From a virus (Duplodnaviria > Caudoviricetes), in the IMG/VR virus record IMGVR_UViG_3300021963_000133, positions 1 through 62,404 of that record: a stretch of 62,404 nt of DNA. One strand, written 5' to 3'. The translations under genes were made by a program, and so were the position numbers. This document shows positions 4,277 through 44,040 of this stretch, one piece after another. Under the pieces are notes generated by a model, which was not told the origin of the DNA, searched no databases, and saw nothing but the letters and a program-made list of their open reading frames with translations. How positions within the stretch are numbered: position 1 is the first letter of the stretch; each line of letters starts with the position of its first letter.

Positions 4277-4460
4277 CTTCTTTGTTTTCCTTGTTTTTGT
4301 AAGGTACCCATTCATTTATTATTTCAGCACGTTCTTCACAACCACAGTCTTCATATCCTGCTAGTTTTGCAATTGCGTCTGCTATTTTAGCGACTCCAAT
4401 CTTTTTATTAAAGTTTAAGAGAGTATCTCCTAATCCTCTTTCGTGCTTTTCAATTGGCAT
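4257..4460 (-). CDS. Hypothetical protein (GLGD...DCGCEER motif)
   Basis: ORF track; motif typical of small phage proteins. Confidence 0.7.
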   Translation of the reverse strand: MPIEKHERGLGDTLLNFNKKIGVAKIADAIAKLAGYEDCGCEERAEIINEWVPYKNKENKEDEEPNT

Positions 4461-15089: not shown

Positions 15090-15325
15090 AAAGCTACACT
15101 TTCGTAGTAGCCACGTGAATTTTGTTAACACTAGTTAAGAAAATTCAACCGCGATTACGCGGCTAGTGCAAAGTTGTCGTTTGCTTGTACTAATCATCTC
15201 TCCCTACCACATTCTATACTGTCAAAAGCCTGGTCATCCCCATGATTTTATTTTAATTTGGTGGAGATGGCGGGAATCGAACCCGCGTCCAATACAGTGT
15301 CAATAAGTGTCATCAACAACTAGTT
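15090..15325 (-). ncRNA. ssrA: Two-piece (circularly permuted) tmRNA; tag ANDNFALAA
   Basis: Acceptor piece GACGCGGGUUCGAUUCCCGCCAUCUCCACCA ends at 15259 and precedes the 5' piece GGGGAUGAC..GAC starting at 15241; tag frame 15184-15155. Confidence 0.88.
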
Positions 15326-16677: not shown

Positions 16678-16893
16678 TTACCATGAATCAACATCTGTTA
16701 AATCAAGTTCAGTTTTTGTTTTGTGACTATAAACTTCAATTCCATTTCCAATTCCAGTTGGAGTTATCTTCCATGTGAAAGTTCCATACTCTCCATAAAG
16801 AGCTTTAATATGTCCTTTCCATTCATCATACATTGCCTGCTGTTTATCATTAAGCACTTCATGAATCTCGTAATTTTTCTTTTTATCTGCCAT
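16678..16893 (-). CDS. Hypothetical protein
   Basis: ORF track; start adjusted to MADKKK. Confidence 0.7.
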   Translation of the reverse strand: MADKKKNYEIHEVLNDKQQAMYDEWKGHIKALYGEYGTFTWKITPTGIGNGIEVYSHKTKTELDLTDVDSW

Positions 16894-17576
16894 TATTCCC
16901 AAATTTGATAAAACTTTCTAAATAATGCTACAACGTCCATTGCATCTTCAATTGCATTGTGTGTAACAATACCTTCAATTCCAGCACGTTCTTTACAAAG
17001 AGCTAAACCTGGTGCAGCATCATCATTTTTCCAATCAATGTATAAAACTGAAGGGTCCAATGTTCTACCACGAGCTTTAAGACATTGCTTCCATCTTGGT
17101 AAACGCTCTAAGAACTTATTATCAAAGTTTGCAAAGTTCTTACCTGCGGCATTGAAATAATAAGGTTTCATTTTTGAAGTTAGGGCTGGGTAAGATTTAC
17201 CATTTACAATTTCCATGTGTCCAGTTAAATCAAACTTACCATCTAAGGCTCCATTCTCCCATAAGAATTGAAAGATTCGTTTAGCAACATCTTCTTCATA
17301 CATGTATTCTCGACCAGTTCTAATCTCAATTTCCTTTCGTTCCTCATCGGTACGAGCCATCTTGTATTCTAAGATGTCGGCAATCAATTGTCGATTCATG
17401 TTAATTGCAAAGATTTCGCCTTCAATTCTCTCTCTAACAATTGCAATTTCAAGTTGTGGTAATTCCTTTAAAGGTTTTACATCTACCGTATCTTCAACCA
17501 CTAATCCAATTGATAGAGTTTGAGTGTTTTCATTGTCAATTCCAGTAGTTTCAATATCAATACTTACGTATTTCAT
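16893..17576 (-). CDS. DEDDh 3'-5' exonuclease
   Basis: SIDIETTG, NFANFD, HNAIEDA. Confidence 0.85.
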   Translation of the reverse strand: MKYVSIDIETTGIDNENTQTLSIGLVVEDTVDVKPLKELPQLEIAIVRERIEGEIFAINMNRQLIADILEYKMARTDEERKEIEIRTGREYMYEEDVAKRIFQFLWENGALDGKFDLTGHMEIVNGKSYPALTSKMKPYYFNAAGKNFANFDNKFLERLPRWKQCLKARGRTLDPSVLYIDWKNDDAAPGLALCKERAGIEGIVTHNAIEDAMDVVALFRKFYQIWE

Positions 17577-17581
17577 AGTTT

Positions 17582-18172
17582 CTATTTTAAAAATTCTAAT
17601 ACTTTCTCTTTAATTCCCGATTGTTTGATACCTTCCATTGCTCTTGGAGTCAAGACAAAGTTTTCTAATCCCCATTTACGTTCAATGTTATCATAGTTCT
17701 TAGCCATGTTCAGGTCATCAATTGCAACCCAATGAGTAACTTCTGGATGTTGCTGTAACCAATACAATATTTCAACATGTCTCTCTTGTTCTAACAACCA
17801 AGTTCGACTCCAATCGATATCCTCATCTTTAAGATGTGCTGCTCCACCTTCATTATATAAATCTTTACAAAATGATGTTGCATCAATTGGACGCTTAATG
17901 ATTCCTTGTGACTCATAGTAATCACCCAGTTCCTCAACAGTTGCCCATCTTTTCCAGTCTGAAGATACTACTATCTCCGCACCAGTTTCCTCAATGATTG
18001 AATTAAGTACTGCGACCGCCTTCTTATTAAAGTTATCAAAGCGATATTCGACATCTAATGCCATAACAGATTGGCTCATCTTACGACCAGCTTTTTGTTG
18101 TTTCTTGAATCGACCTCCCCATTCCGTAGAAAGGCAAATTACTCCATCATTATCTAAAAATATTACTTTCAT
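17582..18172 (-). CDS. HAD-family phosphatase (RNA-repair-associated type)
   Basis: FLDNDGV, VVSSDWK, VAIDD. Confidence 0.82.
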   Translation of the reverse strand: MKVIFLDNDGVICLSTEWGGRFKKQQKAGRKMSQSVMALDVEYRFDNFNKKAVAVLNSIIEETGAEIVVSSDWKRWATVEELGDYYESQGIIKRPIDATSFCKDLYNEGGAAHLKDEDIDWSRTWLLEQERHVEILYWLQQHPEVTHWVAIDDLNMAKNYDNIERKWGLENFVLTPRAMEGIKQSGIKEKVLEFLK

Positions 18173-18292: not shown

Positions 18293-19327
18293 TTAGTGTT
18301 CTTCTTTTCCGTGTTCTTCTTCTGATCCAGCTGGTTTAATTAGGGCTTCTACAATAGCAATAATTGCCAGATATTTAGCAGTTGCTGTAATAAAATGAAC
18401 TACAGTACCGATTCCTGGGATTAGGTGTAGAATTTGGTGTTCAGCTGCATGTTTTACATTATACTCAACAACAACTCCAATGATTGTAGCTAAGGCTGCA
18501 AATTCAAATGGTCCTGGTGCTCCAGCCAATTCTGTTGCATAGTATGAAAACTTATTTAAAGCTCCACCTGCAATTTTTTCAGCGCCTTGTTTTACTTTAT
18601 CTAACAGACTGAATGGAGGAATATGATGCATTTTATGTGCAATTGCAGAAACAAATGGAATACCAGATCCACTCTCTTCTATCATATCAGTAAAATCAAT
18701 GTCTCCATTTATTACGGCTTCATTAATCATTAATGTGATTGCTAATTCAAAAGATTCATTAGTATCTTCTTTGGCTGCTATTTCTCCAGCTTTGGCTGCT
18801 TGAGAAACAAATCCTGAAAGAGCCCAACCTTTCATAGCAGATGCGCATGATTTTAATTGTTTAACCTCTTCAATTAATGAATTCTTAGTCTTTTCTCCAG
18901 ATTTGTCTAATTTCTCTTTAATAACTTTAGACGCTTTTGCAGCTTCAGCATTATAGTAACCCATTGCACCTTTCCATGCTGATTCTAAAGCTTCTTTAAT
19001 TTTAGAAGCAATTAGTTTAACAATACTAATGATATTACCGCCTAATTTAACAATTTTTTCTTGTGTGTCTGTTAATGCTTTCTTACCTTTGGTTTTAGCA
19101 ATCTCAATAGCATTATCAAATTTAGCTTTCATTTTATTAACTAAACTTTCTTCATTGATTGCTTCGGTAAATGAACTATCAAAAATACCAGATTCGATGA
19201 TAACCTTAGTTTCATCTAGGTACGATTTCATGTCTTCAAATTGAGCTACTATATTAAATATAAGTTCTCTTCTTGATTCAACTAAATTTTTATTAGTGTG
19301 AAATTGGCTATAAGATAATAGATTCAC
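18293..19327 (-). CDS. Hypothetical protein (possible internal virion protein; hydrophobic C-terminus)
   Basis: MNLLSYSQF start; several INE/LVE motifs. Confidence 0.7.
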   Translation of the reverse strand: MNLLSYSQFHTNKNLVESRRELIFNIVAQFEDMKSYLDETKVIIESGIFDSSFTEAINEESLVNKMKAKFDNAIEIAKTKGKKALTDTQEKIVKLGGNIISIVKLIASKIKEALESAWKGAMGYYNAEAAKASKVIKEKLDKSGEKTKNSLIEEVKQLKSCASAMKGWALSGFVSQAAKAGEIAAKEDTNESFELAITLMINEAVINGDIDFTDMIEESGSGIPFVSAIAHKMHHIPPFSLLDKVKQGAEKIAGGALNKFSYYATELAGAPGPFEFAALATIIGVVVEYNVKHAAEHQILHLIPGIGTVVHFITATAKYLAIIAIVEALIKPAGSEEEHGKEEH

Positions 19328-19363: not shown

Positions 19364-19442
19364 TAAAAAAGGGTAGGATCAGACGCGTTCTGCCTACCGA
19401 GACCTCGTCGTTAACTTTCGCCAGAGCGTACCGAGACACTTT
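19364..19442 (-). other. Structured element ending in an intrinsic terminator
   Basis: GGUAGG..CCUACC-UUUUU hairpin; duplicated GUCUCGGUA. Confidence 0.5.
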
Positions 19443-19444
19443 GT

Positions 19445-19522
19445 TGCGATTAGAGGAATCGAACCTCCCAGGGGTATATCTACCAAATCAACTCATGAGA
19501 TTGACCTTACACCGATATCGCA
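19445..19522 (-). ncRNA. Atypical tRNA-like RNA (CAU loop, aberrant D arm)
   Basis: GCGAU/AUCGC acceptor, GAGGUUCGAUUCCUC T arm, UCAAU-CUCAUGA-GUUGA arm. Confidence 0.55.
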
Positions 19523-19527
19523 ATATA

Positions 19528-19649
19528 ACAGGATGGGTTTTTGTACGTGCTCTACCAACTGAGCTATTGATTCCGAAGAATCAAGCCGGATTCGAACCGA
19601 CGACCACGAGGTTAACAGCCTAGATTTTACTTTTTGCAGTAACCATCCT
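19528..19649 (-). ncRNA. Y-RNA-like family copy 4 with permuted tRNA domain and Asn-GUU anticodon hairpin
   Basis: AGGAUGG-UUACUGCAAA..AGG-CUGUUAA-CCU..T arm, UUGAUUC-UUCG-GAAUCAA, D arm..CCAUCCU-GU. Confidence 0.8.
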
Positions 19650-19660
19650 AAAGTTTTTAG

Positions 19661-20596
19661 TTATTTCAATTGATAACAATCATTAAATAACTTTTGATAT
19701 TTTTGTTCAATTCCAGGAAATTGTTGTAAATCTACAATAATTTCATTAATTGCATGTCTTCTAAAGAAATCTTCGTTGTATTTATATTTTCTACCCCAAA
19801 TATGAGTAATCAAATTTTCTATTCTAAGACTTTCATCAGATGAATTTAAAAATGGTTTCCATTTTTGATTCCATACTATATTCTGCTTAAATGTATAAAC
19901 TAAAAATGCATTTGGTTTAATTGAACTATAAGAAATTCCTAGTTTGTTTGCAACGGTAGGTAATAACCTCTGTTCGACAAAAACTGTACTTTTTTTATTT
20001 TTTACATTTTCAGGATCTTTGTCTAAAACAATAACTTTAGTAACTTCATTGTACCAAGTATCTATTAACTCTTTAGTTCTATTTTTAAAATACATGATAG
20101 CACAATTCATAGGCCAACAACTCCAATCAAATTTTTCAACGTCATCTTCATGCATCCAATTTATCGGATCATGATAATTAGTATATCCTAAATTTTCATC
20201 AAAATGTTCTTCATGAAACAAACTAAAATCAGAATCAGTTTTAATAAGACCGGATTCTTTAATCCATAAATCAACATCAATAATACAAAATTCAGTATTA
20301 CTTTTTGCTAATTCTTTAGCAACATAGATTTTAGAAAAACTCCAATATCTATTAATTTTATCCTTATAAGGTATTGAATCTAATAAATCAGTGTCTATAG
20401 AATCATATTCTTTTTCAATACCATATTTTTTAAGAATATTTAAGTGCTCTGTATTTGCATACAATTTAATTGGACCATAATTCTTTTTCCAGAATAGAAT
20501 AGAAGCTAATTGAGCTAAAACTTCAATTGCTTCATATTTGTTATTATTTTTAAAAAAATCATGTTCAAATCTGTAATAAGTATGATAACCATTCAT
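19661..20596 (-). CDS. Hypothetical protein, possible GT-A-type glycosyltransferase
   Basis: WSFSKIY, IIDVDLW (DxD), NCAI, EQRLL, THIWG; very AT-rich. Confidence 0.5.
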   Translation of the reverse strand: MNGYHTYYRFEHDFFKNNNKYEAIEVLAQLASILFWKKNYGPIKLYANTEHLNILKKYGIEKEYDSIDTDLLDSIPYKDKINRYWSFSKIYVAKELAKSNTEFCIIDVDLWIKESGLIKTDSDFSLFHEEHFDENLGYTNYHDPINWMHEDDVEKFDWSCWPMNCAIMYFKNRTKELIDTWYNEVTKVIVLDKDPENVKNKKSTVFVEQRLLPTVANKLGISYSSIKPNAFLVYTFKQNIVWNQKWKPFLNSSDESLRIENLITHIWGRKYKYNEDFFRRHAINEIIVDLQQFPGIEQKYQKLFNDCYQLK

Positions 20597-21277: not shown

Positions 21278-21351
21278 TGGAGCCTAAGGGAGTCGAACCC
21301 TTGACCTCTTGCGTGCAAGGCAAGCGCTCTAGCCAACTGAGCTAAGGCCCC
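21278..21351 (-). tRNA. tRNA-Ala(TGC)
   Basis: Loop CUUGCAC; G3:U70. Confidence 0.92.
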
Positions 21352-21359
21352 AATAATAT

Positions 21360-21434
21360 TGGTTGCGGGGGCAGGATTCGAACCTGCGACCTCGAGCTTA
21401 TGAGGCTCGCGAGCTACCACTGCTCTACCCCGCT
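21360..21434 (-). tRNA. tRNA-Met(CAT), initiator-like
   Basis: Loop CUCAUAA; 1:72 mismatch; A11:U24; encoded CCA. Confidence 0.85.
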
Positions 21435-23344: not shown

Positions 23345-23413
23345 ATTTCCAATTTTGATGGGCTCATCTGAAAGTTTTTAAACTAACCAGCACTTGAGAT
23401 TGGTAACTCCTTG

Positions 23414-23485
23414 CTGGGTATCTAGGATTCGAACCTAGGACCGCTCGATTAACAGTCGAGAGCTCTACCGCTGAGCTAATACCCA
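23414..23485 (-). tRNA. tRNA-Asn(GTT)
   Basis: Loop CUGUUAA. Confidence 0.9.
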
Positions 23486-33763: not shown

Positions 33764-34063
33764 CTAGATTTGTTTCCATTCCTTTTTGTAGACCGCTTCC
33801 CAATGATTTCTATACTCTCGAACATTAATCATCTTAATAGTATATTGCCAGTATTCTGTCTCATACCAAATGGTAAGATTTAATGTCAATGCGGATGGAG
33901 GAACGTGACAATCTTTAGCCCATTTAAAAAGTTGTTTGATATTTCCCTTCTGTCTAATTTTTTTAGCAAAAGTAGGAAAATCACAATCCCAAATTTCAGG
34001 ATATTGGGTCAGTATTCCTGACCCAACTCCTTTATATCCTATATTATAGGCAACTTGCTTCAT
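33764..34063 (-). CDS. Hypothetical protein
   Basis: ORF track. Confidence 0.65.
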   Translation of the reverse strand: MKQVAYNIGYKGVGSGILTQYPEIWDCDFPTFAKKIRQKGNIKQLFKWAKDCHVPPSALTLNLTIWYETEYWQYTIKMINVREYRNHWEAVYKKEWKQI

Positions 34064-35193
34064 TAATGAGAATCTCCAACGTTATGCTTCTCTCCATAGA
34101 TTAAGTAATCTGGATTGATGACTTTAGCTACTTTGTTTCTTTCACCAGTATGGTACTTAATTACAATTCCCTCTTCTGGTACTTTAGTTCCTGGAATAAA
34201 GTTGTTAAATACAAATTTGTCCTGTACTTCTTGAGACCAGTTTCCAAAATGTAAGATTTCAACATATTTCAATTCTAAAATATTTGCAATTAACAATTTA
34301 GCATTGATTGGACTTAAGTATTCTCCATTCTCTTTAACATCGAATCCTGCAAACTGAATATCTTTTAAACCATACTCATAATTCTTTTGAATTCCAGCTC
34401 CGTAGATTTCTCCATAGATTGTAATTCCATCTCCAATTTCTGGTTCCATTGAATTGCTCTTAACATATTCCCATAACCTCTTCTTGATTTCATATTTGTC
34501 TGCAATTTCATACCATACATTAGTATCATAGAAACCTTGAGAGTCTGAACCTTTCTCGACATTATGAGAACCAACTACGAATTCATAACCAATCCATTTG
34601 TCAGCCAAACCAACAAATTTCTTAACCTTGTCCCAAAATGTTAATTTAGTTTTCTTAACGATTCCATAACGTGCATTTGTACCGTGGATCTTACGAGTAA
34701 TTTCTACCGTATCCTCTTCAGTAAACATTCCAGCAACATTTTTCAAGTTTGGAAACTTGTAGTAAACATGGAAGTTTGGATTGTCTTGATAACGAATCTT
34801 TTTACCATTAGACAATTGAACTTGTTTAACTGGCGGTTCGTACTTAGTAATGTCCATTGCATTCATCATGTCCTTTCCATCGTAATAGTTTTCCATGAAT
34901 GGAATATGCTTTAATGGAATCAATAAACATTCAGAGTAAACTCCACGTAACTTTACAGTACGTACTCTTTGTCCTTTACGAAGATAACCAGTTACCTCCA
35001 TATCGTCTGATAATATTTGAGGAATCACAGCATCGGTAGTTGCAATAACGATTAAATCGCCTGCTTTATACTCTCCTTTTTTAGTGATTGCATTCCATCC
35101 TCCAACAATTGCCAATTCAATGTTGTCTGCACCTTCAATAGGTTTAATTTCGTTAATTGTTGCTACGTAGCAAACTGAATTTTGATTTTCCAT
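34063..35193 (-). CDS. RNA ligase (DRB0094-like family)
   Basis: N-terminal PIEGADNIE/KLRGVYS domain; KIHGTN, YGEIYG, FDV, EGIVIK, KVIN. Confidence 0.9.
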   Translation of the reverse strand: MENQNSVCYVATINEIKPIEGADNIELAIVGGWNAITKKGEYKAGDLIVIATTDAVIPQILSDDMEVTGYLRKGQRVRTVKLRGVYSECLLIPLKHIPFMENYYDGKDMMNAMDITKYEPPVKQVQLSNGKKIRYQDNPNFHVYYKFPNLKNVAGMFTEEDTVEITRKIHGTNARYGIVKKTKLTFWDKVKKFVGLADKWIGYEFVVGSHNVEKGSDSQGFYDTNVWYEIADKYEIKKRLWEYVKSNSMEPEIGDGITIYGEIYGAGIQKNYEYGLKDIQFAGFDVKENGEYLSPINAKLLIANILELKYVEILHFGNWSQEVQDKFVFNNFIPGTKVPEEGIVIKYHTGERNKVAKVINPDYLIYGEKHNVGDSH

Positions 35194-39260: not shown

Positions 39261-39914
39261 TTAGTTATAAGACCCTAAACAATCTTCTGCCAATTCTAAA
39301 ATTTGATCGAAATCTTCATCTCCAGAGTAATCTTCCTCTTCAACTTCACCTTTTACTTTTAATTCATAGCACCATCCTTCGCCTTCATTATAAACATAAA
39401 GTTCTGATTTTTTCTTAGAAATAAAATTTACACCAAAATCATTAGTATAATTTATCTTCCATGCCTTATAGTCTCCAACTAAAGCTTCTACTTGTTTAAG
39501 TTCTTCTGGTGTTGCAGATTTTCCTTCATTAACGAAGCTTTCGAATAATTTTACATGTTTCATTTTTGGTTTACTTGTTTTTGATTCTTTAATATCTTTC
39601 ATTTTGTCTATAGCCCAATCGACTCCTTCGTCTCCTCCCCAAATTAACCAAGCAACATAACCATTGTCTTTCCATGGTTCAGCTTTGTGTTCTGGAGATA
39701 TTTTAGAATTTTTACGATGTCTATTAAATGCCGACATTCGAGCAACTGTATCAGCTGATAAATTTTCTTTGTTTGCCAATTGATGTGCTCTAGCCCAACC
39801 AACTGCAGTTCCAGCAGTTACCTCGTCTCTACCGTACTTTTCTTTCCAGTCTATTGCCTTCTTTGCATTTGCTGAAGCGGCTGCTGGGTAATCGTTATAA
39901 GTTTCTTCTGCCAT
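39261..39914 (-). CDS. Hypothetical phage protein with internal MKHVKLFESF motif
   Basis: GTAVGWARAHQL..., YVAWLIWGGD domain. Confidence 0.7.
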   Translation of the reverse strand: MAEETYNDYPAAASANAKKAIDWKEKYGRDEVTAGTAVGWARAHQLANKENLSADTVARMSAFNRHRKNSKISPEHKAEPWKDNGYVAWLIWGGDEGVDWAIDKMKDIKESKTSKPKMKHVKLFESFVNEGKSATPEELKQVEALVGDYKAWKINYTNDFGVNFISKKKSELYVYNEGEGWCYELKVKGEVEEEDYSGDEDFDQILELAEDCLGSYN

Positions 39915-39932
39915 AATAAAGTATATATTTAC

Positions 39933-39958
39933 AAAAAAAGCTGTCCGAAGACAGCTTT
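39933..39958 (-). terminator. Intrinsic terminator closing the TROVE/Y-like RNA unit
   Basis: AAAGCTGTC-TTCG-GACAGCTTT plus U-tract. Confidence 0.75.
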
Positions 39959-39970
39959 CTTAAAACTAAT

Positions 39971-40214
39971 ACGGGATCGTTATTCGTGATTTTCTTCCCG
40001 GCGGAATAACCCTGTTATCGTCTTCGGCTTTGACTTTCGCGAGCGTCTACTAATCTTCGACCCATCCTACTTATCACCTATTGGGGTGGTTATGACGTTT
40101 GTCCATTTTTTATCCTGGTTAGACTTCCATTTGCTCTTCGATTGTACTTTGATATAATCTCTGTTGAATCTAAGCGATCATAGTTGTATGTGTACTTTTT
40201 GCTGTACCGATCCA
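39971..40214 (-). ncRNA. Y-RNA-like family copy 5 (long, ~245 nt)
   Basis: UGGAUCG-GUACAGCAAA...CGAUCCC-GU. Confidence 0.68.
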
Positions 40215-40215
40215 C

Positions 40216-40277
40216 CTGGTTCCTTGTCTTCCGTTGTTATCTAAATTGAGGGGTATATGTGTTGCTGTAAGGAACCC
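40216..40277 (-). ncRNA. Y-RNA-like family copy 6
   Basis: GGGUUCC-UUACAGCAAC...AAGGAACCA-GG; about 15 nt downstream of TROVE-like stop. Confidence 0.7.
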
Positions 40278-40292
40278 AATTTCTTTATATAT

Positions 40293-41732
40293 CTAAACAA
40301 CTGGAGCGTATCTTTCACTCAAAATTGTTTTGTCCATGATTTGTTGTGGAGACTGAATATCTCCTCCAAGTAAACTTGTCATAATTGCTGGAGAGAATCC
40401 AGAAACTAAAGCAGTTCCTTGAGTATCAAATGCAACTGGTACTCCACCATTTCTGGATTGGATATTCCAATATACAATTTGAGGCATTTTGTAACCTGCA
40501 TCTGCATACATTTTCTCAATCATTTGCTGAGCAGTTGGATTCCATTCGGTTTTTTCTTCTCGACTGTACCAACCTCCTCGTGAATTAGTTGCCGCATTAA
40601 ATTCCATATCCGATAGGATTAAGATTTTATTTGGCATCTCATCTTGAGATAATTTATGTTTAGTGGCCTGATCTAAGATCAGTTTAAAAGTCGCCTCGAG
40701 ATTCGTTGACATACCCCAATCAGCATGTGCCATCTGTGCGTAGCGATCTTTTAATGAACCACTTAATACTTGTAATTGTGGGTTACTTGAGAATGTGATG
40801 AATGCATCTTTGAAAGGACCTTCATTTCTTTCAGAAATATAAAGACCTAATGAGATTGCAACATCCATACAAGTTACGTTTTTGCTACCTCCGGCTGGAG
40901 TTGACATAGAACCTGAAACGTCCACAACTGGTAAAATCATATCGTTTGCGCCTTCCATGTAATTTGGAAGAGCTTTCCATTGTTCGTTTGCAACAGTTGA
41001 GTTACCATGGTTCAATGACTTAGTCACATCGTATGGGTACACTGCACCTGCATTAATTTTAGCTTCTCCTTTCACTAATGATTGGATATAAGCTGAATAA
41101 CTTTCGTATGCATTTTTACCAAAGGCTTTTTGGTATCTTGCTGAAGCTACTGATGGTAATTTACCGAATTCAATTGAATCCCATTCTTTAGCACACATTT
41201 TAGTTTCAACAACATTAGTTAAACCTACAAGAGATTTACGGTATTGTTTTGGCGACATACCTGTAAATTTACGTAACTTCTCAGCTACTGCACCTTTACG
41301 TGGCATCCATTTTGCACATAAACCATTTTCTGCGATGATTGCATCTGAGATTAAAGTAAATGCTTCTTTCTCTAAAAGAGTTCCAGTAAGAACTAATAAG
41401 TCATCCCAACGACCATATTCTGGAATTAAGTGTAGATTTGGTTTTAGAGCCAAATCGTGGTTTTCGGCCAAGTAAGCGATAATGTCTTTAAAAACTTGTC
41501 TCTCTCCAGCTCCACCTCGAACGTCTCTAGCCCAAAACAAAAGTTTCATAGCACGTTTTGGATCTTCATTAAATGCTAAAGAAAAGGTACGAAGCAAACG
41601 TTCTTTGTCTTGTCCTCTCATTGCACCAATGTTAAAGAATAAATCAACACATGCATTCAACGAAGTTGAATTGGTTGCCATTCCATTTTCTGTTAAAATG
41701 TCTTCTTGTCTTAAAGCGTCTACAAATTTCAT
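40293..41732 (-). CDS. TROVE/Ro60-like protein with vWA domain (DUF2828-like)
   Basis: LTENG, RDVRGGAGER, YGRWDDL, AKWMPR; MIDAS DVSGSM, ILSDMEF, VSGFSP. Confidence 0.85.
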   Translation of the reverse strand: MKFVDALRQEDILTENGMATNSTSLNACVDLFFNIGAMRGQDKERLLRTFSLAFNEDPKRAMKLLFWARDVRGGAGERQVFKDIIAYLAENHDLALKPNLHLIPEYGRWDDLLVLTGTLLEKEAFTLISDAIIAENGLCAKWMPRKGAVAEKLRKFTGMSPKQYRKSLVGLTNVVETKMCAKEWDSIEFGKLPSVASARYQKAFGKNAYESYSAYIQSLVKGEAKINAGAVYPYDVTKSLNHGNSTVANEQWKALPNYMEGANDMILPVVDVSGSMSTPAGGSKNVTCMDVAISLGLYISERNEGPFKDAFITFSSNPQLQVLSGSLKDRYAQMAHADWGMSTNLEATFKLILDQATKHKLSQDEMPNKILILSDMEFNAATNSRGGWYSREEKTEWNPTAQQMIEKMYADAGYKMPQIVYWNIQSRNGGVPVAFDTQGTALVSGFSPAIMTSLLGGDIQSPQQIMDKTILSERYAPVV

Positions 41733-41756
41733 AATTACTTTTGTTAAATTATACTT

Positions 41757-41785
41757 ATTATACTGTAGTGTTTAAAAAAGTTTCA
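41757..41785 (-). promoter_or_regulatory. Class-II promoter upstream of TROVE-like gene
   Basis: TGAAAC-N17-TATAAT. Confidence 0.6.
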
Positions 41786-41803
41786 AACTTTTTTAAAAAA
41801 GTT

Positions 41804-42160
41804 TTATGATGTAGGATTTAGATTAGTCCAATCCGGACCCGCAAGTATTGTTAAAATTTCTGAGTGATTATATGGTCCCTCTTTTGTTGTAAGAGCCTTA
41901 ACACTTTCAGGAATATAAATCTCTATGTTTGCTTCAGGTGCCGTAGATTCTAATTCTGATATTTGTCCATTTTCATCTAATGCCGGTCGAAATAATGATG
42001 AATCACTAGAATCTGAAATCATCCTACCATCCCATTTCACAAATGACTTAGTATTATCATTAGATTTTCTAAGTGTTTCAGCTGAAGTTTGTAGTACTTC
42101 ATTAAAATCAATTAAGTCAACTTCACTAAGGCTAAAAATCATGTATTGTCTATTTTCCAT
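41804..42160 (-). CDS. Hypothetical protein (tail-associated type)
   Basis: IDFNEVLQTSAETLRKS..FVKW; follows LamG gene. Confidence 0.65.
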   Translation of the reverse strand: MENRQYMIFSLSEVDLIDFNEVLQTSAETLRKSNDNTKSFVKWDGRMISDSSDSSLFRPALDENGQISELESTAPEANIEIYIPESVKALTTKEGPYNHSEILTILAGPDWTNLNPTS

Positions 42161-42174
42161 ATTGTACTATATTT

Positions 42175-44040
42175 TTATAAATATTGCATAAAATTTTGAT
42201 ATGTACTGTAATTTTGTAAAATTTCTGATGCTGAAAGTGCTTTATTATATACTCTAGCAACCGCAACTTCTCCTTTAAAATTATGTACACCATCTGTTAA
42301 TCCACTTCCGTATGTACCAACAACGTATGTTGCTGTTGGAATTGTACCTGTTTGCGCTGAACGCCAAACTTCAACACCATTTATATATGCTATACTTGTT
42401 GCACCGTCATATGTACCAACGATATGTGACCATGTGTTATTAGGAATTGAACCATGCGTACTAGAAGGTCTACTACTATTTGTTACATTTGCCCAGTGTA
42501 GTGAATGTGTTGTACCACCATCTTTAGAATCAAATATACCTAAATACATTGTATTATTTGCTGAAATTACTCCACCTCTAACAGTACCGGTACTTACAGG
42601 TTCTGTTGGATTGATCCAAGCCTCACAAGTTATTTGTGAAGATGGTTGATTAGCAAATGTTGGAATATTAATGTAATCATCAGTACCGTCAAAAATAATA
42701 GATCCAGATCTAAAAGTAGGTCCGTTTATTAATGTACCATTGTTACTATTACCTGATAAATCATACATTGCTGTATTTTGTGATCTTGAACCTGCTACAA
42801 ATGGAGTTAGTGTAGAATTAGAACTTTGTTCAATTTGAATATTAGCAATATCTATTTTCATATCTCCAGTATTTGGAAAGAAATATGAAATAAGAGAGTT
42901 GTGTGTTGGTGTGAAAGTAAAACTACGTCTTACCCATTCGCCTTGTGCGCCAGTATATGCTGCAAAACCAAAACCGGATGCTCCAGCAGGACCAGTGTAA
43001 TTGTAATGTTGAAATGAAATATATTGTCCAACTGCAGATGGAGATGCTGCTCTTATATAAAATGAAGTTGTAACTGGTACTCCAATAGTAACAGGAGCAT
43101 CTACGCCATACGCCATACCATCTGTTACTTCTGCTCTAAAAAAGTGTAAACGAATACAATTAGTTACTGGAAATCCAGGAACATTAAAACCGTTTGTTAT
43201 AATCTCTTTAACTAAAGCCGAATTAGGTTGGTGAGGATTTCCAAACCATTTTGTAGGAAAGGAAGATGAGTTAACAGCAACTCTCTGATCTAACCAGAAT
43301 GAGTCATGTACTTTAAATCTTCCGGTTGCAGGATTTAAATATCCTTGGGATCCGTCTTGTGAATCATTATATGCATGTAAACTAAATTGAGTATCTGAGA
43401 TTTTTTTAGCTAGATATTGCGTACCCGCAGTTAATCCTCCTCCTGATGTTTGAGGATTAATAACGTCAAATGATCTAATTACATGTGCGCTTACGGTTGT
43501 TACTATATTACTAGATACAGATGCAATTGCAGGAATATCCCAGTATGTTGCACATCCATTATTTCCACAATATTGATTGGTATTGTACGTACCCCATCCG
43601 TTTCCGGTAGTAGGTAATGAATTAACAGTTGGGTTAGGAATTAAATTAGATGTTGGTTCGCTATTAACAAAACTAGAAACATGAGAACCATCAGCATGGA
43701 AAACTAGACCATTTGTTACAATTTTTTCAAAAGATTGGTTTAACACAACATAGCCGGTTTGAGCTGCAAACCAAGTTAACGCTGCACTAGCACTAGCAAC
43801 ATTAGCTCCTAAACGATTAGCATAACCAACTACTTCATTATCATTTCTTGCAGCAAAAACAACACCAGTAGGACCATATATTGTATATCCTCCAGATGGT
43901 ATCTCAGCACCGTTATAGAAACCTGTTGCTGAACTTGGTCCATCTCCTATATTATTTGGAGTAGTACCAACGGCCCAGTTACCTTTAAAAACAGAATTAG
44001 GCTCTGTTCCTGTTTTATTAATTTTGAATTTATTTGGCAT
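42175..44040 (-). CDS. Virion structural protein with C-terminal LamG/ConA-like domain
   Basis: DLSGNSNNGTL.NG, FDGTDDY, WSHIVGTYDG, YINGV, VYNKALSASEI.QNY. Confidence 0.8.
   Translation of the reverse strand: MPNKFKINKTGTEPNSVFKGNWAVGTTPNNIGDGPSSATGFYNGAEIPSGGYTIYGPTGVVFAARNDNEVVGYANRLGANVASASAALTWFAAQTGYVVLNQSFEKIVTNGLVFHADGSHVSSFVNSEPTSNLIPNPTVNSLPTTGNGWGTYNTNQYCGNNGCATYWDIPAIASVSSNIVTTVSAHVIRSFDVINPQTSGGGLTAGTQYLAKKISDTQFSLHAYNDSQDGSQGYLNPATGRFKVHDSFWLDQRVAVNSSSFPTKWFGNPHQPNSALVKEIITNGFNVPGFPVTNCIRLHFFRAEVTDGMAYGVDAPVTIGVPVTTSFYIRAASPSAVGQYISFQHYNYTGPAGASGFGFAAYTGAQGEWVRRSFTFTPTHNSLISYFFPNTGDMKIDIANIQIEQSSNSTLTPFVAGSRSQNTAMYDLSGNSNNGTLINGPTFRSGSIIFDGTDDYINIPTFANQPSSQITCEAWINPTEPVSTGTVRGGVISANNTMYLGIFDSKDGGTTHSLHWANVTNSSRPSSTHGSIPNNTWSHIVGTYDGATSIAYINGVEVWRSAQTGTIPTATYVVGTYGSGLTDGVHNFKGEVAVARVYNKALSASEILQNYSTYQNFMQYL

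Follow-up and report, generated by a model that had tools for sequence, protein, structure and literature searches.

What is an RNA that carries the parts of a transfer RNA (tRNA) in permuted order doing in the tRNA array of a bacteriophage? The question is raised by an element at about 19650–19529 on the minus strand of IMG/VR record IMGVR_UViG_3300021963_000133, a viral record of 62,404 bases judged to be ~29% complete, which was analysed over its whole length and is referred to here as the window. A preliminary description of this locus, made from the sequence alone, proposed a tRNA mimic with a detached asparagine (Asn) anticodon hairpin that cannot be charged and that acts as a decoy or guide. 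As outlined below, sequence, family searches and covariation place the element among the Y RNAs of the known YrlA class, in an uncultured large freshwater phage and with a likely Ro60-fold protein as its partner. We consider it probable, though well short of certain, that this RNA is the RNA subunit of a Ro60-type ribonucleoprotein (RNP) and that, as a tRNA-Asn look-alike, it serves the tRNA pool in infection.

A permuted tRNA body on a complete anticodon stem

Read directly from the sequence, the minus strand at 19650–19529 forms an enclosing stem around a circularly permuted tRNA body, inside which an anticodon-like hairpin, a variable loop of 5 nucleotides (nt), the T arm, a closed acceptor stem of 7 base pairs (bp) and the D arm follow one another (Table 1). 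The permuted order and every element named in the preliminary description (hairpin, T arm, UUCG-capped acceptor, D arm and enclosing handle) are present. What had been missed is that the CG at 19608–19607 is complementary to the CG at 19547–19546, right after A26. With this pairing the numbering of a tRNA fits without a gap: positions 27–28 pair with 42–43 and 29–31 with 39–41, the loop occupies 32–38 and the variable loop 44–48, and A26 lies opposite U44. The nucleotides of the tRNA tertiary structure, G15, G18, G19, C48, U54, U55 and C56, are all in place. Only two departures from a tRNA are left, the closed acceptor end and a break in the strand at 28/29, from which the two strands exit to the handle. 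Hairpin and additional pairs together are a regular 5-bp anticodon stem, broken at 28/29, with no linker nucleotide between the two helices. The hairpin with an Asn-type loop therefore stands as first described, while the word detached has to be dropped, since two covarying base pairs complete a 5-bp stem that is merely split. The hairpin would sit end-on to the 2-bp helix, not loose in a loop, and would be expected to stack on it coaxially.

The handle consists of 8 bp, one G·U among them (19650–19643 with 19536–19529), and is kept in nine close relatives with a single compensatory change (locus L242) and a single wobble (L192). Its 5' strand leads into a junction of 21 nt, compared with ~6 nt (UUACUU) in most family members. 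The YUAY sequence conserved in YrlA RNAs is found here as UUAC at 19642–19639, and relatives have UUAC or AUAC. The minimum free energy (MFE) fold (−36.1 kcal/mol, z −2.17, with 6 of 200 shuffled sequences folding equally well) yields the handle, T, acceptor and D helices and does not draw the 3-bp hairpin.

Assignment to the YrlA class

In a permissive scan of 701 bases with all 4227 Rfam families, YrlA (RF02553) was the best match to the element, at 19519–19633 on the minus strand with 39.4 bits and an E value of 3.9e-7. Over the whole record the E value is 8.4e-9, and the next YrlA match, at 24 bits, falls on a tandem-tRNA junction. The Rfam alignment places the T arm, the closed acceptor-like stem-loop and the D arm, which bears out the earlier idea of a YrlA-type T–acceptor–D mimic; the hairpin has no counterpart in the Rfam model. 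Neither ARAGORN nor an Rfam scan at gathering thresholds makes a call at the element, the Rfam tRNA model gives only 18 bits and no call, and a blastn search of the locus against GenBank phages returned zero matches.

Relatives and covariation

Relatives were gathered by three pattern scans of viral contigs and then by a covariance model. The main viral pattern set comprises at least 116 distinct matches and, among the matches listed, 89 have the permuted T/closed acceptor/D layout. A strict hairpin (3 bp, 7 nt, 3 bp) together with the 2-bp closure after N26 is found in 60 of these 89 listed loci; 28 further listed loci have the 2-bp closure without the strict hairpin, their stem running on into the handle as in Salmonella. 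The same pattern gave 129 matches in bacterial genomes, 82 of them permuted and 48 strict, in Streptomyces, Rhodococcus, Nocardia, Hymenobacter, Flavobacterium, Bradyrhizobium and others. The element of the window and nine viral loci (L192, L242, L243, L253, L255, L261, L265, L273 and L283) form a close sub-clade that shares the handle sequence and the long junction.

The covariance model, trained on 15 members of equal acceptor length, finds 88 RNAs of at least 60 bits in 100 sources. In their alignment, fitted to that same model, 97.4% of the cells in paired positions are paired (66.5% in shuffles), and the covariation score of 0.786 compares with 0.174 in shuffles, none of 500 reaching it, and with at most 0.151 when the partners are slid. 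Kinship among the sequences inflates the covariation counts, which for these 88 homologues are as follows. In the hairpin stem all three pairs change on both sides (95.8% of cells paired), and in the 27–28:42–43 helix both pairs covary (99.4% paired), with tallies of AU 39, CG 29, GC 15 and UA 5 and, at the second pair, GC 80, UA 4 and CG 3. Covariation extends to 4 of the 5 pairs of the T stem (99.8% paired) and to all 7 of the acceptor stem; the D stem is nearly invariant in sequence. The (N)GGUC of the variable loop was fixed in the pattern that gathered most of the homologues, and its constancy there is not independent evidence.

Below 60 bits the model matches mostly plain tandem-tRNA junctions, such as 21320–21407 of the window at 58.9 bits. 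This fits the published origin of the class, according to which most YrlAs resemble circularly permuted tRNAs derived from dimeric tRNA transcripts (bioRxiv 10.1101/312249, cited here and below from the parts of the preprint that were available). Both points would also be expected of an inert relic of two tandem tRNA genes. However, the strands of the acceptor stem are mutually complementary and covary along its whole length, a pairing that tandem tRNAs do not have, and the element is kept over all the homologues and into bacteria and is covered in RNA libraries, so that a relic of this kind is hardly credible. In many phage loci two YrlA-like RNAs lie close together (e.g., L182, L150, L165, L042, L237, L207 and L140); the hairpin loops of the paired copies differ in L150 and L165, and the second copies of L207 and L140 score below 60 bits.

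An anticodon-type loop with a varying triplet

As had been claimed, the hairpin loop has the very sequence that is found in the loop of tRNA-Asn (23413–23485) of the window itself. Among the viral relatives the loop has 7 nt in 84 of 88 cases, and these 84 loops have U33 in 79, a purine at 37 in 83, A38 in 81 and a pyrimidine at 32 in 69. Positions 34–36 hold 28 different triplets, GUU (22), UGU (9) and GCU (9) being followed by many others. U36 always goes with A37 (58/58), and G36 goes with G37 in 17 of 18 viral loops. The 48 strict bacterial loops have U33 without exception, a purine at 37 in 41 and A38 in 42, with CAU and GUU as the commonest triplets. Within the sub-clade GUU is shared by the window and six relatives, while L265 has AUU, L242 UAC and L192 UCU. 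Judged by these sequences, the loop follows the rules of anticodon loops while its triplet varies, and it is a family-wide element that is not specific for Asn. Nor is the hairpin special to this phage: it was already drawn in 2014 as a 'V' stem-loop (variable arm), at the start of which the conserved YUAY was placed (Chen et al., 2014; PMC4201824). An anticodon arm fits the sequences better than a variable arm, because the hairpin is followed by a variable loop of the normal 5 nt and abuts the 2-bp helix with no nucleotide in between; the 'V' label of the YrlA papers is a misfit for the RNA of the window for the former reason.

An RNA of this shape could also be a permuted or split tRNA gene, in which RNase P opens the acceptor loop and trimming and CCA addition lead to a charged tRNA-Asn, in two pieces or re-ligated. 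The statement that the RNA cannot be charged does not follow from its closed acceptor and needs correction, because YrlA of Mycobacterium smegmatis, whose acceptor stem likewise has 7 bp, is reported to be cleaved by RNase P and given CCA (PMC4201824; bioRxiv 10.1101/312249), and the available part of the preprint raises such processing as a possibility. The tertiary-pair nucleotides are complete, and an RNA ligase gene is present in the phage. However, the same array contains a normal tRNA-Asn(GUU) gene, and the acceptor-stem cap ranges among relatives from 2 nt to long inserts, unlike a kept processing site. Moreover, the handle would stay attached within the anticodon stem, the loop of a close relative reads AUU, and no bacterial enzyme that would excise and rejoin such a stem is known according to the same part of the preprint. 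A tRNA gene in disguise is thus a very improbable explanation.

Expression and linkage to a Ro60-fold protein

Contigs from three freshwater RNA libraries, each from a different study, cover 19525–19657 and also 19371–19442. Some of them join across 19443–19524, as in relatives without the second element that lies there, and one runs into the upstream tRNA, as in L255. There was no cover in the RNA runs over 19480–19524 or the flanking open reading frames (ORFs), where the relatives present in the samples may merely differ, and run X5 gave no contig on the locus.

The candidate protein partner is encoded at 40293–41732 (Table 1). A profile of 44 homologues searched against PDB sequences has Ro60 on top (E 0.006), and in all 44 sequences D271, S273 and S275 of the DxSxS motif are invariant. 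The AlphaFold2 model of the product has a predicted local distance difference test (pLDDT) score of 88.3 and a predicted template modelling (pTM) score of 0.87. Foldseek shows 12 of its 13 matches with E values of at most 0.001, and all those shown are Ro60/TROVE structures (template modelling score 0.39–0.62, normalised by query length), including Ro60 of Thermus phage phiLo, Xenopus and human Ro60, and Deinococcus Rsr. The top matches, 9KOP and 9L5Y, have 17% identity in the Foldseek alignment. According to this model the product is a Ro60-fold protein, with a helical-repeat ring together with a vWA (von Willebrand factor A) domain that carries the MIDAS (metal-ion-dependent adhesion site) motif.

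In the family at large the RNA is accompanied by Ro60-type genes. Of 50 viral records with an RNA of this kind, 40 hold a TROVE gene, including all 17 that are at least 90% complete; the ten records without TROVE are those of L168 and of the nine sub-clade loci, all of them fragments (3–42% complete). DUF2828, the domain of the protein encoded in the window, is found in two of the nine sub-clade records and in none of 24 TROVE-bearing ones. A homologue with 47% identity is encoded in L242, on the strand of the RNA and starting 376 nt downstream of its core. The protein family of 40293–41732 is present in 709 GenBank phage records at 32–57% identity, with some members labelled 'Ro-like RNA binding protein', and includes proteins of KVP40, FelixO1 and Listeria, Staphylococcus and Mycobacterium phages, among them LeBron. 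In the latter a T–acceptor–D module without an anticodon-type hairpin lies 154 nt after the gene of this family. Genes of the family often adjoin tRNA arrays (FelixO1, KVP40), and in Listeria phage LMTA-94 the gene lies 1.3 kb from an RtcB-type ligase. A search of 39800–42300 for a Y RNA near the Ro60-fold gene of the window gave nothing. The RNA at 19650–19529 probably works with the Ro60-like protein of the same phage, which it would bind.

A proposed role in the tRNA pool

In the model that we favour, the RNA would be a subunit of a Ro60-type RNP, with the 40293–41732 protein as its likely partner. The handle side would hold the protein ring, and the tRNA-shaped module would offer a stable tRNA-Asn look-alike, presumably uncharged, to proteins that recognise the tRNA elbow or the anticodon loop. 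In a phage with 24 tRNA genes, an RNA ligase and a phosphatase domain of the RNA-repair type, its most likely use would be the protection or policing of the tRNA pool in infected cells. This could be achieved by competition for nucleases directed at the anticodon loop, or by recruitment of a host RNA-decay or repair enzyme such as PNPase; complexes of Ro60, Y RNA and PNPase, one of them with a phage Ro60, are described in the available part of PMC12135203.

Several findings weigh against this model or against the evidence on which it is built. The YrlA score of the element does not reach the gathering threshold of the family (69 bits); five homologous loci in TROVE-bearing records give seven YrlA matches that are likewise sub-threshold (35.4–43.7 bits), so that a low score is normal for this branch. 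The fit of the covariation alignment to its own model favours the structure, and many homologues were gathered with the T loop, GGUC and UACUUC fixed, which biases the sample. The coupling of G36 with G37 is seen in just 4 of 10 bacterial loops and may be an effect of one clade. The handle does not show in its 5' strand the sequence GNCGAAN0-1G, the 5' Ro60-binding motif known from print; GGCGAAAG occurs in the separate downstream element at 19371–19440, where it is kept in 3 of 7 relatives. Pfam TROVE has no match in the record, which holds ~29% of a genome, and the Ro60-fold gene lies 21 kb from the RNA in the window and ~26 kb from it in the record of L265 and is absent from seven of the nine sub-clade fragments. 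Protein and RNA do not always travel together, because KVP40 has the protein family and gives no RNA-model match above 35 bits. Finally, RNA contigs cannot show the ends, strand or level of an RNA, and their depth may sum other organisms.

The distance of the gene, and its absence from most fragments of the sub-clade, would suit a free decoy, as the preliminary description has it, i.e., an abundant tRNA-Asn look-alike, uncleavable or sacrificial, that soaks up an anticodon nuclease or another anticodon-reading enzyme without any Ro60-type protein. In line with this, the sub-clade keeps the Asn-type loop in 8 of its 10 RNAs while the hairpin stem compensates (AGG/CCU to AGC/GCU in L283), RNA-library contigs cover the RNA, and a competitive-inhibitor role has already been suggested in print for Salmonella YrlA (PMC7790460). 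A decoy or guide function as such is plausible and partly anticipated by that suggestion. However, the RNA family travels with Ro60/TROVE genes in every near-complete record and adjoins a DUF2828-type gene in L242, a bare decoy would need neither the conserved handle nor the UUAC junction, and Asn is not fixed, one close relative having AUU and others UAC or UCU. A decoy that acts without protein is therefore a rather unlikely alternative to the Ro60-type RNP.

A bolder extension of the RNP model, which we put forward tentatively and hold to be rather unlikely, takes the variable arm of YrlA for a tunable mimic of the anticodon arm. Ro60-type particles of phages and bacteria would then display a full tRNA look-alike, the triplet at 34–36 being set by the lineage to the tRNA (here Asn, GUU) that is attacked or read by a nuclease or modification enzyme specific for the anticodon, and the particle would bait, block or sense that enzyme. 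If true, this would give a concrete job to the tRNA-like domain of bacterial Y RNAs. In most members collected the mimic is complete, with a 5-bp anticodon stem and a rule-abiding 7-nt loop of varying triplet. While the focus was earlier on elbow binders, a complete mimic directs attention to readers of the anticodon loop, such as defence nucleases, queuosine, t6A or m1G enzymes and repair ligases. In addition, the widespread phage DUF2828/Ro-like family becomes tied to the Ro60 fold, and at least two of its lineages to YrlA-type RNAs. For the window alone the outcome is one of annotation: the tRNA array gains a Y RNA gene as well as two more small structured elements, and a candidate gene is assigned to the partner protein.

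The tRNA array and its neighbouring features

On the minus strand between 14.4 and 24.5 kb the window carries 24 tRNA genes and a permuted transfer-messenger RNA (tmRNA). The latter, a two-piece tmRNA at 15155–15308 (minus strand), scores 73.1 bits with Rfam tmRNA_permuted (cut-off 47), and ARAGORN gives its tag peptide as ANDNFALAA. The tRNA array of L261 contains a near-threshold match to the freshwater-1 RNA motif (RF02979) at 4382–4443 on the minus strand, with 69.4 bits for a cut-off of 72. A position inside such an array would suit an element whose tRNA shape is kept only to direct correct cuts of the array transcript by RNase P, RNase Z or RNase E. In L255, L273 and L253 a spacing of 2 nt separates the end of a tRNA from the handle that follows, in L283 a tRNA begins right behind the handle, and in the window a tRNA-like element follows the RNA directly. 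Yet such punctuation has no need for a closed acceptor, a conserved handle, a covarying anticodon-type hairpin or a linkage with Ro60 genes, and many family members are located outside tRNA arrays, beside TROVE genes; we regard it as an improbable account of the Y RNA.

The tRNA-like element at 19444–19523 is degenerate. Its 7-bp acceptor stem is perfect and its T arm good, a clear D arm is lacking, and there are an extra arm and a loop of 7 nt that contains CAU. ARAGORN calls it with relaxed settings only, as a poor Ser(tga) fold, and it is absent from the nine sub-clade relatives and skipped by RNA contigs. It may set the 3' end of the Y RNA via RNase P. The element that follows, at 19371–19440, ends in a hairpin and then, in the window, six U (19365–19370). 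Two helices with compensatory changes (L243, L265, L255) were read by eye; RNAalifold gave an unconvincing structure with no compensatory pair, and no Rfam family matches the element. It could be a second Y-like RNA.

The ORFs that flank these elements, 18293–19327 and 19661–20596, match no Pfam or PHROG family. In Atlas, 19661–20596 matches only DUF6734, and nothing usable was obtained there for 18293–19327, for which tblastn gave one weak match, in an unannotated 635-kb phage. Also on the minus strand, in the neighbourhood of the tRNA array, are genes of the RNA-repair type, for a weakly RNase_T-like exonuclease (16893–17576), a HAD_SAK_2 domain protein (17582–18172) and an RNA ligase (34063–35193; PHA02142 OB fold and RNA_ligase). 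A DNA ligase is encoded in the window as well.

Table 1. Features of the Y RNA, its downstream elements and the candidate partner gene (window coordinates, except for the counterparts, which are in the coordinates of their own loci)
Feature	Position	Strand	Details and basis
Handle, 5' strand	19643..19650	-	UAGGAUGG; partner strand 19536-19529 according to the MFE fold
5' junction strand, 21 nt	19622..19642	-	Begins with the YrlA-conserved UUAC
Anticodon-like hairpin	19609..19621	-	3-bp stem AGG/CCU, 7-nt loop CUGUUAA (U33, GUU, A37, A38)
Positions 42-43 (CG), partners of 27-28	19607..19608	-	Helix 2 of the covariation alignment
5-nt variable loop UGGUC (44-48)	19602..19606	-	C48 free for a Levitt pair with G15
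T arm GUCGG-UUCGAAU-CCGGC	19585..19601	-	Sequence, Rfam alignment, covariation
Closed acceptor-like stem UUGAUUC/GAAUCAA, 7 bp, UUCG cap	19567..19584	-	MFE fold, covariation
U8 A9 (19566-19565) and D arm GCUC-AGUUGGUA-GAGC (19564-19549)	19549..19566	-	G18 and G19 present
A26 and positions 27-28 (CG, 19547-19546)	19546..19548	-	Close the multiloop with 19608-19607; sequence, covariation
3' junction strand UACAAAAAC (9 nt) and handle, 3' strand CCAUCCUG	19529..19545	-	MFE fold, relatives
Degenerate tRNA-like element directly 3' of the Y RNA	19444..19523	-	Rfam tRNA-Sec 21.6 bits, E 0.11
Conserved structured element after the Y RNA	19371..19440	-	In 7 of 10 sub-clade loci; RNA-contig cover
Counterparts of 19371-19440	L261 2578-2660, L265 4669-4745, L255 11903-11976, L273 2519-2592, L243 591-659, L253 3629-3702		
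Ro60-fold protein gene, candidate partner	40293..41732	-	DUF2828 and DUF7788/vWA with DxSxS motif (Pfam)

Comparison with known systems

The YrlA RNAs of Salmonella Typhimurium and M. smegmatis share with the RNA of the window the order of T arm, closed acceptor-like stem and D arm, near-invariant D and T sequences and the nucleotides of the tertiary pairs, as well as paired ends and a YUAY before the stem-loop upstream of the T arm. They are encoded with Ro60-type genes, sometimes beside tRNA genes. Further marks of the YrlA class are binding by Ro60 in cells and the presence of pseudouridine 55 and dihydrouridine. In contrast to them, the window RNA is without GNCGAAN0-1G in the 5' strand of its handle and scores under the Rfam cut-off. 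The available parts of bioRxiv 10.1101/312249 state that YrlA 'lacks the anticodon loop' and that in Salmonella YrlA a conserved UA kinks the anticodon-like stem; as described there, the 'anticodon stem' of the crystallised Salmonella RNA is continuous to the Ro60 site, whereas the RNA of the window would bear a hairpin with a true anticodon-type loop on just 2 bp of that stem. Yrn1 of Deinococcus radiodurans, also a Y RNA, is drawn in PMC4201824 with a T arm and a potential 'anticodon arm' whose stem has 5 bp. However, Yrn1 has a 6-nt loop and no full D arm, and its arm lies between T and D, at the anticodon position, whereas the window RNA has its acceptor between T and D and a 7-nt loop in which U33, A38 and a purine at 37 are present.

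Thermus phage phiLo likewise combines a phage Ro60-fold protein (PDB 9KOP and 9L5Y) with phage Y-like RNAs, Yrl1 and Yrl2 (PMC12135203, in its available part). Unlike the RNA of the window, these are stem-bulge-stem RNAs with a CGAA motif, and the words 'tRNA-like' and 'YrlA' do not occur in that paper. Finally, the permuted tRNA genes of red and green algae and one archaeon, as related in the available parts of bioRxiv 10.1101/312249, resemble the window RNA in having the 3' half first, an acceptor that is closed at the outset and ends that pair close to the anticodon stem. In those systems a splicing endonuclease and a ligase turn the permuted transcript into a working tRNA, whereas in the RNA of the window the break lies at 28/29 and not in the loop, and the phage has a normal tRNA-Asn gene too.

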